NCBI RefSeq assembly: GCF_006345805.1
Contig: NW_021832035.1
Location: 124,001-188,000, forward strand
Source of the DNA: Octopus sinensis
Lineage: Eukaryota
Direction of reading: 5' to 3'
DNA: 64,000 bases
Below are positions 2,926 to 48,072 of the stretch, in pieces (position 1 is the stretch's first letter; each line of letters opens with the position of its first letter). Below the pieces are notes generated by a model. That model did no database searches and was not told the origin of the DNA. It worked only from the letters and a program-made list of their open reading frames with translations. A program made the translations under genes and the position numbers.

Positions 2926-3806
2926 CTATTAAACATTGCATTGAATTAAATTATTTACTTTACAGAAGGAGAAAGAATGACAGGGAGGTGTATAATGAAA
3001 GCATTTCTTTAGGATAAAAGCATTCTCGTTCACAGTCCATTAGTAGTGTAAGGGAGAGAGAAATAGTTGTAAACTTAATTTGAATTTTACGTGAGAAAAT
3101 GTTATTCAGAGCAATCAAACTGTTTTTGTATCCCTGTTAATATAACAAATGCAGTCGCTTGCCTTACAATTCTGACTTCAGCTATATGTAAGCATCTGTC
3201 AGTGATTAAAAGAAGACGTTCTAATTCTAGTCATTTCCAATGATATGTTTGGTATACATTCTCTTGCATATATATATATCACTGTGACCTACCAGACTAT
3301 CAGATGTTGCTACACATCGCTAGTCACAATGCGCTTTGCATTGTTTTAGCCTTCAAATGGCTAAGCAAGCAGTAACATGAAATAAAGCATCTTGCTTTAT
3401 AAGGAACTGAATTCATGACTTTATGATTGTAAGCCGAATACCCTAACCACTTAACCATGTGCCTTCTGAGGTACTGTTCAAGCTGCATACACCAGAACCT
3501 GAATTTGTCTGGGAGCAATATTTTGTCAATTCTTCATCATTTTAGTGGGTTTTGACCCCTTCTTGTATCATTAAGTAACCTATAAAACAGGCTTCCCATA
3601 GAATCTTTGATTTATAGGCATGATTCCTCCTGAAATTTCAAACTTCACTTCCTTCTGTCTCTCTTTGAGGAGATTTCTTTCTTTATTTGTGCTTTGAAAT
3701 ACATCTTTGACAAAGTGACCAGAACTCATCTAACCTGTACAGGATTCTCATCACTAGTTTTTGTCTTCTGCCAGCATTTGCTTTTATAGATGATATATCA
3801 AAATAT

Positions 3807-4085
3807 TACGGAGATGTACTTGCATAGCGAGTGACTTGATCTGGGAACGTGTGCTGGAACGAAAACAATTGCAGCATGGAAGGTGTTTATAAGCCATTTA
3901 AGAAACACACAAAACTGTTAGATTCATTTCAACATTCGTGCAGCACAAAGTTTTGTCAGTGAACAGGTCGCGGTCTCAAAGCAACGAAAATATTTTGACA
4001 AATTAAATTTAAATGTTGAAATAAATCTAACAGTTTTGTGTGTTTCTTAAATGGCTTATAAACACCTTCCATGCTGCAATTGTTG
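3807..4085. mobile_element. Penelope-like fold-back insert (inverted pLTR fragments)
   Basis: 12-bp TSD ATATCAAAATAT (3795-3806 / 4086-4097); inverted arms 3864-3936 / 4012-4084; hammerhead-like motif between the arms. Confidence 0.7.
3952..4002 (+). ncRNA. Minimal type I hammerhead ribozyme-like motif, G3-C8 variant
   Basis: Stem I TTTGTCA/TGACAAA; core GTGAACA; G; stem II GTCGC/GCAAC (one mismatch); GAAA; minimal stem III ATATT; putative UUU cleavage triplet. Confidence 0.6.
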
Positions 4086-4414
4086 ATATCAAAATATATT
4101 GCCAATAAAATCTTTCTTTGAGGAGTGGACATTCATTTCAGTCTTGTGAACCACTGTGCCTCATACAAAGACTTCTATTCTAAGTATAAACCATGTGACT
4201 GATATTGAGCATCCAGACCGATTCCTACATCCAACTTGTACCAAACCATTGTATTATTTACTGTTATTGAGAAAATTTGTAAATTTAATTCAATCATCGT
4301 TTTCCATTGGCCAGTTTTTTTTTCCAGTTTCCTTGTTAAATCATTTGCTGACATCATCATCTTTATAGCCAATCAAATGTCATGTTCATATTTCCTGAAT
4401 CATGACTTTCCCTC

Positions 4415-9892: not shown

Positions 9893-10283
9893 GCTTTGTT
9901 TTTGCGTCTGGTTTGTAAGATTCTTTATGTGAATTTGTGTGTTGAAACAAATTTTTTTGTGTCTAGGGAGAGTCATTATGCCAGTATAGTTAACACACAC
10001 ACACACTGGTTCAGTTCCACTCATTTATTATTAGTCAATTGGTTAAATATCTGATTGTTTTGTGTTTGTTTGTCAAAGTTCTTTCATTGTTTCTGGCAAC
10101 CTTTTCAATGACTATTGACTTAGTCTGTTATCCTTGAAAAGACTGCAAGAAGCAACAAAAGAACTTTGACAAACAAAACCAAATCAATTGGGTATTTAAC
10201 CAGTTGACTAATAATAAACCAGTGTGTGTGTGTGTGTGTTAATTATATTGGCGTTACGGCTCTTCCTAGACGCAACAAAATCT
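9893..10283. mobile_element. Penelope-like fold-back insert
   Basis: 10-bp TSD TTATATGTTT (9883-9892 / 10284-10293); diverged inverted arms about 9950-10108 / 10134-10281; left end shared with the element at 47828. Confidence 0.7.
10072..10112 (-). ncRNA. Minimal hammerhead-like motif, U3-A8 variant (second degraded copy on + at 10134-10170)
   Basis: Minus strand reads GTCA-TTGAAAA-G-GTTGC-cagaa-ACAAT-GAAA-GAACTT-TGAC; the two arms together give a perfect GTTGC/GCAAC stem II. Confidence 0.5.
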
Positions 10284-12130: not shown

Positions 12131-12621
12131 CATCTTATTAAGCAACTTATCTGAGAATCCTGTTCTGGTCCTATTGAGTATAAGAGATTTTGTTGGTGTG
12201 TGGCTTAAAATTTGAATGTAAAATTTGCTTATAAGCAAGGTGTACCTCCACCTTTGTGTGTAGATTCCTTTGTTGGTTCATCAAAGTAGGGTCATAGGTG
12301 AAGGTGTTATTGTAATTATTTCAGAAGCATTTTTGACCTTATTCTGTCCTTTTCTAACTTTTAGCCTTCTCAAACTGATGAAAACCTGTTTCTTTGGAAA
12401 CACAAACTATGGATTAATTAACTGTTAAAATGGTGTTAACATATTTCATGTAATGAGCATGGAGCATCAGAAGGTTAATTAAAGATAATTAAGCTGTGAG
12501 GAAAAATTATTTCACCAAGTATGAGATGATGATGATAATAATCATAATAATAATAATAATAATCCTTAAATCCTTAAAAATGTTTTAGCCTGAAGGCTGC
12601 GGCCATATAATGATAATAATA

Positions 12622-13619
12622 ATAATAATAATGATACACTCCTGGTTTGTCAGTGCTTGTCAAACTGTCCAACACATGCCAACACGGAAAACAGATGTGC
12701 AATAGTATATATAAATAAGTGTGAGAAACAAGTCTACTGGTGGCTTTTCTTGAATGAACAAGATATAAGCCAACAAGGGAACCTCTGTATGAGTAATTTT
12801 ACTGCTAGAAATAGCAGTCATGTTTATCTGTAAATTACACCCTGTTGTCTCAAAAGCAGAGAATATGTTGAGTAATGTAACCTTAGGTATACTATCGGTT
12901 GGAATGTCATTTTTAGAACCTCTTTGATCACAAGTATACTGGATCAGGACTGTTCTGTGGGGTTAAAAAGAAAATTTGGCAGAAGAAAATATTTTACGTC
13001 TAGAATTGAGAAATCTTTCACTGAGCTTATGCCAATAACATTTTGGGGAATGGCATAAATGTCATGACATCTTACTTCAACTTTCTTGAAACCTGGCATA
13101 GCAATAATAATAATAATATAATAATAATAATGATACACTCCTGGTTTGTCAGTGCTTGTCAAACTGTCCAACACATGCCAACACGGAAAACAGATGTGCA
13201 ATAGTATATATAAATAAGTGTGAGAAACAAGTCTACTGGTGGCTTTTCTTGAATGAACAAGATATAAGCCAACAAGGGAACCTCTGTATGAGTAATTTTA
13301 CTGCTAGAAATAGCAGTCATGTTTATCTGTAAATTACACCCTGTTGTCTCAAAAGCAGAGAATATGTTGAGTAATGTAACCTTAGGTATACTATCGGTTG
13401 GAATGTCATTTTTAGAACCTCTTTGATCACAAGTATACTGGATCAGGACTGTTCTGTGGGGTTAAAAAGAAAATTTGGCAGAAGAAAATATTTTACGTCT
13501 AGAATTGAGAAATCTTTCACTGAGCTTATGCCAATAACATTTTGGGGAATGGCATAAATGTCATGACATCTTACTTCAACTTTCTTGAAACCTGGCATAG
13601 CAATAATAATAATAATAAT
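12622..13619. repeat. Tandem duplication of a 499-bp unit bounded by (AAT)n
   Basis: TGATACACTCCTGG at 12632 and 13131; copies appear identical and give the same ORF tail twice in the track. Confidence 0.95.
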
Positions 13620-14054
13620 AATATATAATGTCACAAAAACCAATATTAGTAAAACCTTTTGAACATATGATGGCCAGAGAAATAGTTTTTGGTTCTTTCC
13701 AGATTGTTGTGTGCTAATCAATCGTATTGAAAGCTTTCTTCACCTGTTGCTTCAATCCTAGAAATATTGATTATTGGATTCTCAGACCAGCTTTCTTCAG
13801 CACTGCTTTTACATCCTCTTCCTTCATTTCCTCCTTCTACAATGCTGTTGTGTCGTTTGTAACCTTTAATAGTCTCCACTTTTCTTTTTTTGCTACTCAG
13901 ATATTTCTTTGGTATTCTATGCATTTTTACCCTTACATTCTTCTGTCATTTAAAAACTTTCAGACTTCCGATTTGCCATTCAGTCTTGTTGTTGCTCTTT
14001 AACCATAGGTCAACCCTGACCAAATAGATCTGTAGTCAATCCTTTTGCTACCAT

Positions 14055-14608
14055 CCGAGCGTGGTTGTTACCAACGTCGCCTTACTGGCACCTATGGTGG
14101 TGGCATGTGTAAAAGGATTCGAGCGAGGTCGTTGCCAGTACCGCCTGACTGGCCCCCGTGCCGTGGCATGTAAAAGGGCACCATTCGAGCCTGATCGTTA
14201 CCAACGTCGCCTTACTGGCACCTGTGCTGGTGGCATGTGTAAAAGGATTCGAGCATGGTCATTGCCAGTACTGCCTGACTGGCCCCCGTGCTGTGGTATG
14301 TAAAAGGGCACCATTCGAGCGTGATCGTTACCAACGTCGCCTTACTGGCACCTGTGCTGGTGGCATATGTAAAAGGATTCAAGCGGGGTCATTGCCAGTA
14401 CCACCTGACTGGCCCCTGTGCCGGTGGCATGTAAAAAGCACCCACTACACTCTCGGAGTGGTTGGCGTTAGGAAGGGCATCCAGCTGTAGAAACTCTGCC
14501 AAATCAAGATTGGAGCCTGATGCAGCCATCTGGTTCGCCAGCCCTCAGTCAAAATCGTCCAACCCATGCTAGCATGGAAAATGGACGTTAAACGATGATG
14601 ATGATGAT
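14055..14608 (+). mobile_element. SINE-like family A with about three tandem ~125-bp internal modules
   Basis: GTTACCAACGTCGCCTTACTGGCACCT occurs three times before the common 3' end. Confidence 0.9.
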
Positions 14609-20414: not shown

Positions 20415-20905
20415 TGACCCTGCCAGTGCTGGTGCCACATAAAACGCATCCAGTCCCCACTGGGAAGTGGTTGACATTTGAAAGGGCATCCAGCTGTAAA
20501 AACCATGCCAAAACTGACTTCGCCTGTGCTGGTGCCATGTAAAAGCACTCAATCCATTCTATGGGGTGGTTGGTGTTAGGAAGGGCATCCAGCTGTAAAA
20601 ATCATGCCAAAACTGACTTCGCCTGTGCTGGTGCCATGTAAAAGCACTCAATCCATTCTACGGGGTGGTTGGTGTTAGGAAGGGCATCCAGCTGTAAAAA
20701 TCATGCCAAAACTGACTTCGCCTGTGCTGGTGCCATGTAAAAGCACTCAATCCATTCTATGGGGTGGTTGGTGTTAGGAAGGGCATCTAGCTGTAAAAAC
20801 CATGGCAAAGCAGACACAGTTGCCTAGTGTAGCCTTCTACCTGACCAGCTCCTGTTAAACCATCCAACCCAGGCCAGCATGGAAGACATATGTTAAATGA
20901 TGTTA
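20415..20905 (+). mobile_element. Family A-related element with a 99-bp tandem array (about 3.5 units)
   Basis: CGCCTGTGCTGGTGCCATG at 20521, 20620 and 20719. Confidence 0.85.
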
Positions 20906-28262: not shown

Positions 28263-30038
28263 TATATTCATTGTCCAAGTGGATGGTCAGTTACTGGAAA
28301 TTAGAGTGCTCGGCCTCTTGCATATTGCAGGTTGATTTCATAAGCAGGCTGTTCTATTGATCAGATCGACTGGAACCTTCATCTTTGTAACTGCCTGAGT
28401 GCCAGTTAAATTTTTTTTTCTTTTCATGTAATGAAACCATATCTGAGAATCCTGCAACATTCTACAAATCTTAGTGATTCTTTCATGTTCAGGATGTGAA
28501 ACCTTAACACCAGTAAAGTTTGTGTAAGAAGCAGTGACTCTAGGTATTATTAGCTATGAAAGCCATGATGAAACAACGTCACATAAATATCCTAATTAAT
28601 GGGATGTGTGGTGAGTTCATTATAGAGCTAAAGGCAATTTAACACAAGAAGAAAGCAGAACAAGAAAACCCACTTGGATAAAAGGCAAAGTCAACCTTGG
28701 CGGATTTGAACTCAGAATGTAACAGCAGATGAAATACGCTAAGCATTTTGCCTGGCGTGCTAATGTATCTGCCAGCTTGCCGGCTTCTTTCAGTTTCTGC
28801 CTACAAATCCACTCATAAGGCTTTGGTTGGCTTGGGGTTATAGTAGAAGATACTTGTTCAACATGCCACATATATTCATTGTCCTAGGGATGGTCAGTTA
28901 CTGGAAATTAGAGCTCGCCAGCTTCTTTCAGTTTCTGCCTACCAAATCCACTCACAAGGCTTTGGTTGGCTTGGGGTTATAGTAGAAGATACTTGTTCAA
29001 CATGCCATATATATTCATTGTCCTAGTGGATGGTCAGTTACTGGAAATTAGAGCTCGCCAGCTTCTTTCAGTTTCTGCCTACCAAATCCACTCACAAGGC
29101 TTTGGTTGGCTTGGGGTTATAGTAGAAGATACTTGTTCAACATGCCATATATATTCATTGTCCTAGTGGATGGTCAGTTACTGGAAATTAGAGCTCGCCA
29201 GCTTCTTTCAGTTTCTGCCTACCAAATCCACTCACAAGGCTTTGGTTGGCTTGGGGTTATAGTAGAAGATACTTGTTCAACATGCCATATATATTCATTG
29301 TCCAAGTGGATGGTCAGTTACTGGAAATTAGAGTGCTCGGCCTCTTGCATATTGCAGGTTGATTTCATAAGCAGGCTGTTCTATTGATCAGATCGACTGG
29401 AACCTTCATCTTTGTAACTGCCTGAGTGCCAGTTAAATTTTTTTTTCTTTTCATGTAATGAAACCATATCTGAGAATCCTGCAACATTCTACAAATCTTA
29501 GTGATTCTTTCATGTTCAGGATGTGAAACCTTAACACCAGTAAAGTTTGTGTAAGAAGCAGTGACTCTAGGTATTATTAGCTATGAAAGCCATGATGAAA
29601 CAACGTCACATAAATATCCTAATTAATGGGATGTGTGGTGAGTTCATTATAGAGCTAAAGGCAATTTAACACAAGAAGAAAGCAGAACAAGAAAACCCAC
29701 TTGGATAAAAGGCAAAGTCAACCTTGGCGGAATTTGAACTCAGAATGTAACAGCAGATGAAATACCGCTAAGCATTTTGCCTGGCGTGCTAATGTATCTG
29801 CCAGCTTGCCGGCTTCTTTCAGTTTCTGCCTACCAAATCCACTCATAAGGCTTTGGTTGGCTTGGGGTTATAGTAGAAGATACTTGTTCAACATGCCATA
29901 TATATTCATTGTCCTAGTGGATGGTCAGTTACTGGAAGTTAGAGCTCGCCGGCTTCTTTCAGTTTCTGCCTACCAAATCCGCTCACAAGGCTTTGGTTGG
30001 CTTGGGGTTATAGTAGAAGATACTTGTTCAACATGCCA
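28261..30038. repeat. Nested duplication: ~660-bp segment repeated about 1027 bp downstream plus a 140-bp tandem array
   Basis: 28261-28920 recurs at 29288-29950; lines starting 28921, 29061 and 29201 begin identical 140-bp units. Confidence 0.95.
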
Positions 30039-31819: not shown

Positions 31820-31882
<63 letters not shown>

Positions 31883-31980
31883 CTTCAGAAATACATATGC
31901 TAAAATTGGAACAATACAGAGAAGAATACCATGGCCCCTGCACAACTGTAACATGCAAATTTGTGAAGTGTTCCATATTT
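31883..31980 (+). pseudogene. U6: U6 snRNA pseudogene
   Basis: Ungapped match to metazoan U6 from CTTCGGCAGC to TTCCATATTT, including ACAGAGA; catalytic AGC triad changed to ACC; 5' end replaced by microsatellite. Confidence 0.95.
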
Positions 31981-32214
31981 CAAAATCACTCTGGTGCTCC
32001 AGCTTGACCGCAGCTACATGGCTGAAATGAATTAATGACTTGCAGGGACAACAATAATATACCACAAAGTATATGCAACCATAATATACCATAGTATATT
32101 ATGCAATCATAATATAGTATAAAGTATATTAAGCGTTTTTATAAGTCAATACCGTGTACTAACTACTGTGTTAGCAGTGCACTTTACATCACTTGTTAAG
32201 GTCATCTCTATAGA

Positions 32215-32615: not shown

Positions 32616-32878
32616 TTCTATAAAAATCAGTGTTGGCTGTATTTTCCATAGAATATCTATAGAGATAATCTTAACAAGTGACATAAAAGAATATATGTGT
32701 GTGTGTGTGTTTGCCCCATTCCTGCTTGACAACCAGTGTTGGTTTGTTTACATTCCCTTAACTTCTCTCTCTCTCTCTCTCATTAATTACATGCAAGTAT
32801 TCAATATTGTCCTTTAAAGCTCATCACTCAGCTTTAATTTCAAGACATCTTAAAATTGAAAAGTAAGAAATAAGTATT

Positions 32879-33164
32879 TTTGTATTTAGGAATGGTCATT
32901 TTGCCAGTTTAGCCAATAAAAACACACGCACTATATATTTGGTGTTACTTTGCTTCAGCGTTATTTATTTTTTACATTAATCTTAATCTTATTTCGGCTA
33001 GAGTTCTTTCGTCACACTCCTGTGACCTCATCGGTGGTCCTTTGCTTTCTTCTTTCTTAGTTGTGTGTCTCTCGTTACTAACGGTCAGCCATTTTGTATT
33101 TTGTATTCCTATTGTGTCTTCACACGATTTCACATCAAAAATCTTGCAAAACAAATATATAAAC
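32879..33164 (-). mobile_element. Penelope-like short insert with hammerhead-like motif
   Basis: 16-bp TSD GTAAGAAATAAGTATT (32863-32878 / 33165-33180). Confidence 0.7.
32996..33040 (-). ncRNA. Minimal hammerhead-like motif (C3-G8, U4C)
   Basis: Minus strand GGACCA-CCGATGA-G-GTCACA-ggag-TGTGAC-GAAA-GAACTC-TAGCC; perfect 6-bp stem II, damaged stem I. Confidence 0.55.
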
Positions 33165-47827: not shown

Positions 47828-48072
47828 CGTTTTTGGATTTGGTTTGCAAGATTCTTTGTATGAGTTCGTGTGTTGAAGCATATTCTGTTGTGTCTGGGGA
47901 GAGTCATTTTCTTTTTGTGCCTTATTATTTAACACACTCACCGGTAAAATTTCCACTTTTTTCTTATTTTTAGGACAATAAAAATTAAAATAAGAAAAAA
48001 GTGGAAATTTTACTGGTGAGTGTGTTAAATAATAAGGCACCAAAAGAAAATGACTCTCCCCAGACACAATAG
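47828..48072. mobile_element. Penelope-like fold-back insert, same family as 9893-10283
   Basis: 17-bp TSD CATAACTTATTTTATTT (47811-47827 / 48073-48089); ~83-bp inverted arms. Confidence 0.75.

Follow-up and report, generated by a model that had tools for sequence, protein, structure and literature searches.

A candidate minimal hammerhead with a G3-C8 core in the pseudo-LTR of an octopus Penelope-like element family

The window, by which we mean the whole 64,000-nucleotide stretch of octopus DNA analyzed here, carries one copy of a motif that we interpret, with a probability of roughly 60%, as the minimal hammerhead of a Penelope-like element (PLE) family in which the 3-8 core pair is G3-C8 family-wide. 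Such a motif is likely a slow, regulated self-cleaver, dependent on a second copy and probably also on the protein of the element. Few parts of the hammerhead core are more conserved than the C3-G8 pair; the present motif departs from the literal core box C3-U-G-A-N-G8-A in having G3 and C8, and the Watson-Crick pair between the two positions is retained as G-C. Judged from sequence, all structural traits of a PLE minimal hammerhead are present save the literal core letters. The motif constitutes no new RNA class, and any cutting of RNA is likely to be weak and to require two motifs together.

Structure of the motif

The first-pass annotation had proposed a motif of hammerhead type whose core changes, G3 and C8, compensate each other. 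Reading of the letters confirmed a 51-nt hammerhead-shaped motif, with the following parts:

3952..4002 (+): minimal hammerhead motif of Type I whose core pair is G3-C8, assigned from the sequence and the family copies
3952-3958 / 3996-4002 (+): stem I, 7/7 pairs
3959-3965 (+): core box GUGAACA, with G3 at 3959, C8 at 3964 and A9 at 3965
3966 (+): extra unpaired G between A9 and G10.1, from the sequence
3967..3985 (+): stem-loop II, strands 3967-3971 / 3981-3985, mismatch C3969-A3983
3986-3989 (+): GAAA box, from the sequence
3989-3994 (+): palindromic stem III, AAUAUU, self-complementary, from the sequence
3995 (+): U17 of the triplet UUU; cut predicted at 3995/3996 from hammerhead numbering

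The copies of the family agree with the assignment of G3 and C8. Stem I is perfect over its seven base pairs, as had been claimed, and stem II indeed contains a single CpG-type mismatch, where A3983 of the window copy, at a CpG and opposite C3969, is G in most other copies; the self-complementary stem III region is likewise suited to dimer pairing. The earlier statement that the core deviates at exactly positions 3 and 8 is right in that both differ and do so in compensatory fashion, but it overlooked the inserted base G3966. U4, G5, A6, A9, G12, A13, A14, A15.1-U16.1 and an NUH triplet are all found, as are the unpaired base between positions 9 and 10.1 and the palindromic 15.2-16.2 region. 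Stems I and II with G10.1-C11.1 are present in the family, the window copy having its one stem II mismatch. The view that UUU is a poor cleavage triplet did not hold up, U17 being common in published PLE motifs and in the sister families described below.

Folded on its own, the 51-mer gave an energy z of -1.19, with 26 of 200 shuffles as good, and the Rfam hammerhead models had no match either in the whole window or in 3800-4150. That the motif is more than a chance likeness follows from 388 exact genomic matches to its 47-nt form with a perfect stem II (reversed control: 0), and from related PLE families that keep the fold with other sequences. These 388 copies also mean that the rank of best-preserved motif given to 3952-4002 applies inside the window but not beyond it.

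Stem III of the window copy consists of two pairs and a two-base loop, and the stem III duplex on its own is predicted to be very weak (-0.2 kcal/mol). The pair probability of stem II is ~0.01 in the window copy (fold of 3939-4084) versus 0.95-1.0 in two intact copies, and a search for a second motif copy of the same family within the 64-kb window found none. With its stem II mismatch and no same-strand partner, the window copy is likely decayed and inactive; we rate its own chance of cleavage as low. An efficient stand-alone ribozyme at this locus is therefore very improbable: it could draw on a seven-pair stem I and complete core boxes, but it would have to function with a nearly unpaired stem II, a minute stem III and one motif copy in the window, and the single minimal motifs of metazoan PLEs are described in PMC4209133 as inactive, their dimers as weak. 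Since published single motifs were inactive, the 3945-4010 single-copy transcript that had been proposed for an assay would probably remain uncleaved even if the motif works.

A Penelope-like partner element

We refer to the PLE family of the window motif as family A and searched for it in the genome (2.7 Gb). Two loci retrieved through the 32-mer just downstream of the motif contain an RT/GIY-YIG frame ~1 kb upstream of the motif, and a protein search with this partner frame yielded many close genomic copies. At locus L193, an open frame of 1,042 codons combines an RT (YSRYVDD) with a CxxxCxxC linker and an end of GIY-YIG type, with an intact G3-C8 motif behind the ORF; the motif lies ~900-1,050 nt past the ORF stop. 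Locus L238 presents the pseudo-LTR, the motif and then, 56 nt after the predicted cut, an ATG leading into the same ORF. The overlap of L238 with L179 identifies the two as ends of one element with a motif at each end, so that a read-through RNA would hold two motifs ~4.4 kb apart. At the loci with an ORF, the motif is thus located in the pseudo-LTR of a PLE.

A Pfam search with the L193 ORF gave no hit. It shares 55% identity with a sister ORF whose GIY-YIG and RVT_1 hits are weak and do not reach the cut-offs, its distant homologues carry PF00078 and PF01541, and Octopus vulgaris supplies its best named homologue (57%). On the strength of the motifs in the L193 frame, the identity to the sister ORF and the homologues, the partner is assigned to the endonuclease-bearing PLEs, with one ORF that comprises an RT plus, at the C-terminal end, a GIY-YIG domain. 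Pseudo-LTRs at both ends, inverted 5'-truncated copies, an optional tail and AT-rich target duplications are found as well; inverted truncated copies of this kind, target duplications and two 3' ends are described as PLE traits in PMC8557442 and PMC11167929. The Cys linker suggests the Neptune or Nematis clade (PMC8557442), as a lead only. The hammerhead reading of the first-pass annotation thus stands, but the Penelope context had been absent from it.

Two other candidates were set aside. A 4-kb tandem on C1, considered as the full-length element, turned out to be a local duplication, and the PLE family that dominates the GIY-YIG search does not share the pseudo-LTR of the motif. A different, very young PLE family was also encountered (loci L121, L122, L125 and L126), in which an intact 781-codon RT-endonuclease frame is preceded by an overlapping 479-codon frame; a descriptor search found no hammerhead in its 3' region.

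The insertion in the window and the short copies

The typical family A copy is ~210 nt long, with a near-fixed start and an end at ~150 or ~210. The insertion in the window comprises two such copies in opposite orientation:

3939..4084 (+): short PLE copy, read as the element transcript's 5' end, 94% identical to positions 6-151 of the 210-nt reference
4051..4084 (+): beginning of the truncated PLE ORF, with its start codon and initial codons; the same ATG opens the ORF in L238, L247, L248 and L249
3805..3935 (-): inverted, 5'-truncated second copy (reference 80-210), motif-less, with a ~55-nt 'tail'
3795..3806 (no strand): left target-site duplication, 12 bp, AT-rich, from the sequence
4086..4097 (no strand): right target-site duplication, 12 bp, from the sequence

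The copy at 3939..4084 stops at the 'short' class of 3' ends. As pseudo-LTR, motif and ATG run into the ORF in L238, the short repeat is the 5' end of the PLE transcript, composed of a UTR and ~31 codons. Duplications of at least 9 nt flank 18 of 30 loci versus 5 of 90 mismatched-pair controls, some of them lying in microsatellites. The insertion is unlikely to have an effect for the host.

The two opposed copies create 73-nt inverted arms (3864-3936 / 4012-4084) around the motif, and the window copy therefore resembles a long hairpin. This resemblance, together with the missing Rfam match, might suggest that the likeness to a hammerhead is accidental, the motif lying in the spacer of a MITE-like DNA element whose terminal inverted repeats span 73 bp. 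We consider this ruled out by the ORF-linked copies, as long copies continue straight into the PLE ORF; moreover, the fixed terminal inverted repeats of a MITE or DNA transposon are not seen, the arms differing in length and side between copies and being missing in many. Nor do the copies have the layout of non-LTR retrozymes, in which tandem units would carry a full motif each: they are mostly single or inverted, and same-strand pairs or triplets of family A copies are a few only.

Among 35 element matches from 30 loci, chosen through the downstream 32-mer, 22 start at reference positions 1-8 and one at 61-65, the area of the cut site. This distribution argues that it was uncut RNA that gave rise to the genomic copies. 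The anole Poseidon element PAc (Frangieh et al. 2024, PMC11167929) likewise uses uncut RNA as the template. Of 37 short copies, 27 have an extra G ahead of the first templated bases (L090:1567-1358 is an example), versus 1 of 28 long copies. It possibly reflects a reverse-transcribed cap, which would fit initiation 16 nt upstream of stem I; alternatively, it may mark an intron-like 3' end that coincides with this position. A search for a spliced first exon in front of the short copies found none, a single extra G being what they share.

G3-C8 in the genomic copies of family A

A DNA search of the genome with the window sequence returned 2,319 candidates, of which 40 were scored, and the 32-mer just downstream of the motif had 4,052 exact matches (control: 0). 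When positions 3 and 8 were left free, the pattern matched 2,105 times. By hand count, 92 of 100 matches listed carried G3-C8; the others listed were G3/U8 (3), G3/G8 (2), U3/C8 (2) and C3/C8 (1), with no C3-G8 among the 100. In three further organisms, too, loose-end consensus lines taken from contigs have G3-C8, and one line of a fourth organism has U at position 8. The first-pass annotation had named a loss of G3/C8 or of the stems in other copies as evidence against its proposal; the copies conserve both. Conservation among the copies of one family, however, mostly reflects their common source and not selection.

The mismatched G3.G8 form, which is predicted to be inactive, had 220 genomic matches, and among 100 of these listed, 99 carried G3 and none C3. 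In untargeted copies, G8 was present in 8 of 94 versus 2 of 94 each for U8 and A8. Copies of the G3.G8 minority (e.g., L245, L249, L284, L290), which outnumbers other changes at position 8, fall on several subfamily backgrounds and include long copies. Because this form was amplified on several backgrounds, a paired core seems dispensable for the spread of elements, in some lineages at least. The idea that G3.G8 represents a fossil step leading away from C3-G8 found no support, as G8 occurs on several backgrounds and the long copies with the greatest divergence have G3-C8. Mean divergence is 0.038 (n=35) for the G8 copies versus 0.025 (n=162), the two sets having been fetched differently.

Sister families and covariation of the 3-8 pair

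Two sister families carry the same fold behind the ORF, each with the extra G and U17: family B with C3-G8 and family C with U3-A8. The ORF ends of families A, B and C are 50-56% identical. A pattern requiring a base other than G at position 3 matched 7,676 times in the genome (control: 1). Hand counting assigned 64 of 100 matches listed to family C, 34 to family-B-like motifs and 2 to family A. U3-A8 was present in 57 of the 64 listed family C motifs and C3-G8 in 28 of the 34 listed family-B-like motifs; a script applied to 30 fetched loci gave 16/17 and 11/12 for the respective subsets. In one B-like subfamily, the last five bases of stem I are common to family A, and its core box differs from that of family A only at positions 3 and 8.

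Alignment of 12 natural motifs from four or five families (3 G-C, 5 C-G and 4 U-A; two rows partial) showed positions 3 and 8 paired in 12/12. Stem II covaries as well, with three of six pairs changing on both sides and 95.8% of cells paired. The aligned rows are related and represent about three independent family-level events, not twelve. With this reservation, the comparison indicates that the 3-8 pair covaries in nature, taking the Watson-Crick forms G-C, C-G and U-A.

These data bear on the notion that the motif is a dead relic, in which two chance changes were amplified along with one founder and their compensation is meaningless. One founder could account for every G3-C8 copy, and G3.G8 copies do exist. 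Yet G3-C8 is carried by the most diverged long copies and also by the youngest clade, although loop II has changed, a second family switched independently and with compensation to U3-A8, and both stems stay paired while their sequences change. We consequently judge the relic explanation improbable.

Of 43 metagenomic loci examined, two were close relatives with a recognizable motif; both motifs have C3-G8 and the extra G, and both PLEs are 47-50% identical to the family A ORF. One of these motifs (L303:4950-5010) has GAAU, as read by eye, in place of GAAA as its second box. In a protein tree of 14 rows, with stops read as X, family A, families B+C and the metagenomic relatives form a fork without branching order. 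C3-G8 as the ancestral state is suggested by parsimony only.

Related PLE sequences also occur elsewhere in the window. Positions 10049-10118 (-), with the core at 10108-10102, contain a PLE-type hammerhead of a fourth family, with U3-A8, the extra G and a mismatched stem II, inside an inverted pair. A family B copy at 32870-33099 (-), 92% identical, has a C3-G8 core in which U4 is changed to C. The long hairpin at 47884-48072 scored in Rfam as plant microRNAs; this was rejected, the hairpin being an inverted pair of family C ends that lack the motif.

Cleavage and its possible role

In hammerhead catalysis, G12 acts as base and the 2'-OH of nucleotide 8 as acid (PMC11300833). As the 3-8 pair would only have to position the ribose of nucleotide 8, G3-C8 could serve catalysis as well. 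G8C has been reported to abolish cleavage and C3G to restore it partly (PMC8495972), and a C3G+G8C double mutant was partly active in a PLE hammerhead that cleaves only with the PLE protein (PMC11167929). We think it somewhat probable that intact copies of family A cleave measurably.

A likely course of events is as follows. Transcription would begin ~16 nt ahead of stem I. The two motifs of a transcript that is tandem or reads through pLTR-ORF-pLTR would pair via the AAUAUU palindrome, and cutting would follow U17; G12 would act as the base and the C8 2'-OH as the acid. Most RNAs would escape cleavage and become the templates for new genomic copies, and the thousands of short 5'-end copies would come from internal priming close to +150 and +210. 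These would often gain an inverted truncated partner, and the window would hold one such insertion.

Both strands of the element are covered by RNA reads of a related organism (1,684, 1,279 and 1,241 reads), and 86-87% of them continue into other sequence, that is, read through. No peak of read starts or ends was seen at the element in these three runs of one study, ~6% of each having been sampled from fragmented cDNA, which makes for a weak test.

An alternative explanation holds that the fold is kept, but not for cutting: it might be a 5' structure for binding of the PLE protein, for translation or for control of priming, for which any Watson-Crick 3-8 pair would suffice. The origin of inserted copies from uncut RNA, the lack of reads ending at the predicted cut site, and the toleration of three 3-8 pairs alongside the spread of G3.G8 all speak for it, as does the finding that hammerhead mutants of the single PLE tested in vitro showed no drop in insertion (PMC11167929). 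However, a structural role leaves it harder to explain why U4, G5, A6, A9, G12, A13, A14, A15.1, U16.1 and H17 are kept among families whose ORFs are only ~50% identical, and the published G3-C8 double mutants were partly active (PMC11167929, PMC8495972). We regard a purely structural role as rather unlikely, and prefer the reading of the motif as a slow, regulated self-cleaver. The broader proposal, according to which a natural inverted G3-C8 hammerhead was fixed as an active ribozyme in a recently mobile animal retroelement, with related PLE lineages independently switching the 3-8 pair among C-G, U-A and G-C, is put forward tentatively, as we place it a little short of even odds.

Relation to known hammerheads

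The motif shares many features with the metazoan PLE min-HHRs of Cervera and de la Pena (2014, PMC4209133), namely the Type I arrangement in the pseudo-LTR, an extra base between A9 and G10.1, the G10.1-C11.1 pair, a tiny palindromic stem III and the common U17; the oyster motif in their Fig. S3 has the same triplet. Both systems comprise thousands of single dispersed copies and opposite-strand pairs. In contrast, none of the 56 motifs in Fig. S3 begins with G3, stem I is longer here (7 pairs), and the extra base is G, where their consensus has A, C or U and one listed motif has G. Their set includes a natural U3-A8 variant in Schistosoma, and U3-A8 was likewise reported as a natural 3-8 covariation by Perreault et al. 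(2011, PMC3088659), so that this form is already published; G3-C8 is added here.

With PAc (PMC11167929), family A has in common the location of the motif where the pLTR meets the ORF, a pair of 3' ends by which a 'tail' within the first part of the ORF is delimited, and AT-rich targets. The ORF of PAc starts inside stem II, as opposed to 56 nt after the cut site, and G3-C8 is an engineered, partly active state of PAc but the natural state here. Like the non-LTR retrozymes (PMC7229834; bioRxiv 10.64898/2026.07.22.740005), the present copies are short non-coding hammerhead repeats derived from PLE pseudo-LTRs; the retrozymes are characterized by tandem arrays, classical type I motifs and circular RNAs, whereas the copies here are mostly dispersed monomers or inverted pairs that start upstream of the motif.

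In the literature covered, which leaves aside the main survey of PLE hammerhead variants (Lunse et al. 2017), a natural G3-C8 was not found, and the occurrences encountered are laboratory mutants only (PMC11167929, PMC8495972, PMC3884650). A search for literature on octopus Penelope hammerheads returned nothing relevant, and the words 'hammerhead' and 'ribozyme' are both absent from the main text of a 2026 octopus repeat annotation (PMC13282606).

Three related PLE families with three 3-8 pairs in one genome amount to a natural series, which can be used to test selection for cutting against selection for shape, a question that is described as open for PLE hammerheads in PMC8557442 and PMC11167929. 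Descriptor and Rfam searches undercount such motifs. Should G3-C8 be active, searches built on CUGANGA would overlook entire families, each thousands of copies strong, and flipped cores may be present in some PLEs that are called hammerhead-less.

Other features of the window

A U6 snRNA match at 31877-31982 (77.6 bits) has several substitutions and is likely a pseudogene. A long stretch rich in TCA, together with tandem arrays whose periods are ~499, 64/130, 99 and 140 bp, occupies 1836-2487, 12607-13629, 14050-14436, 20482-20809 and 28774-29333.
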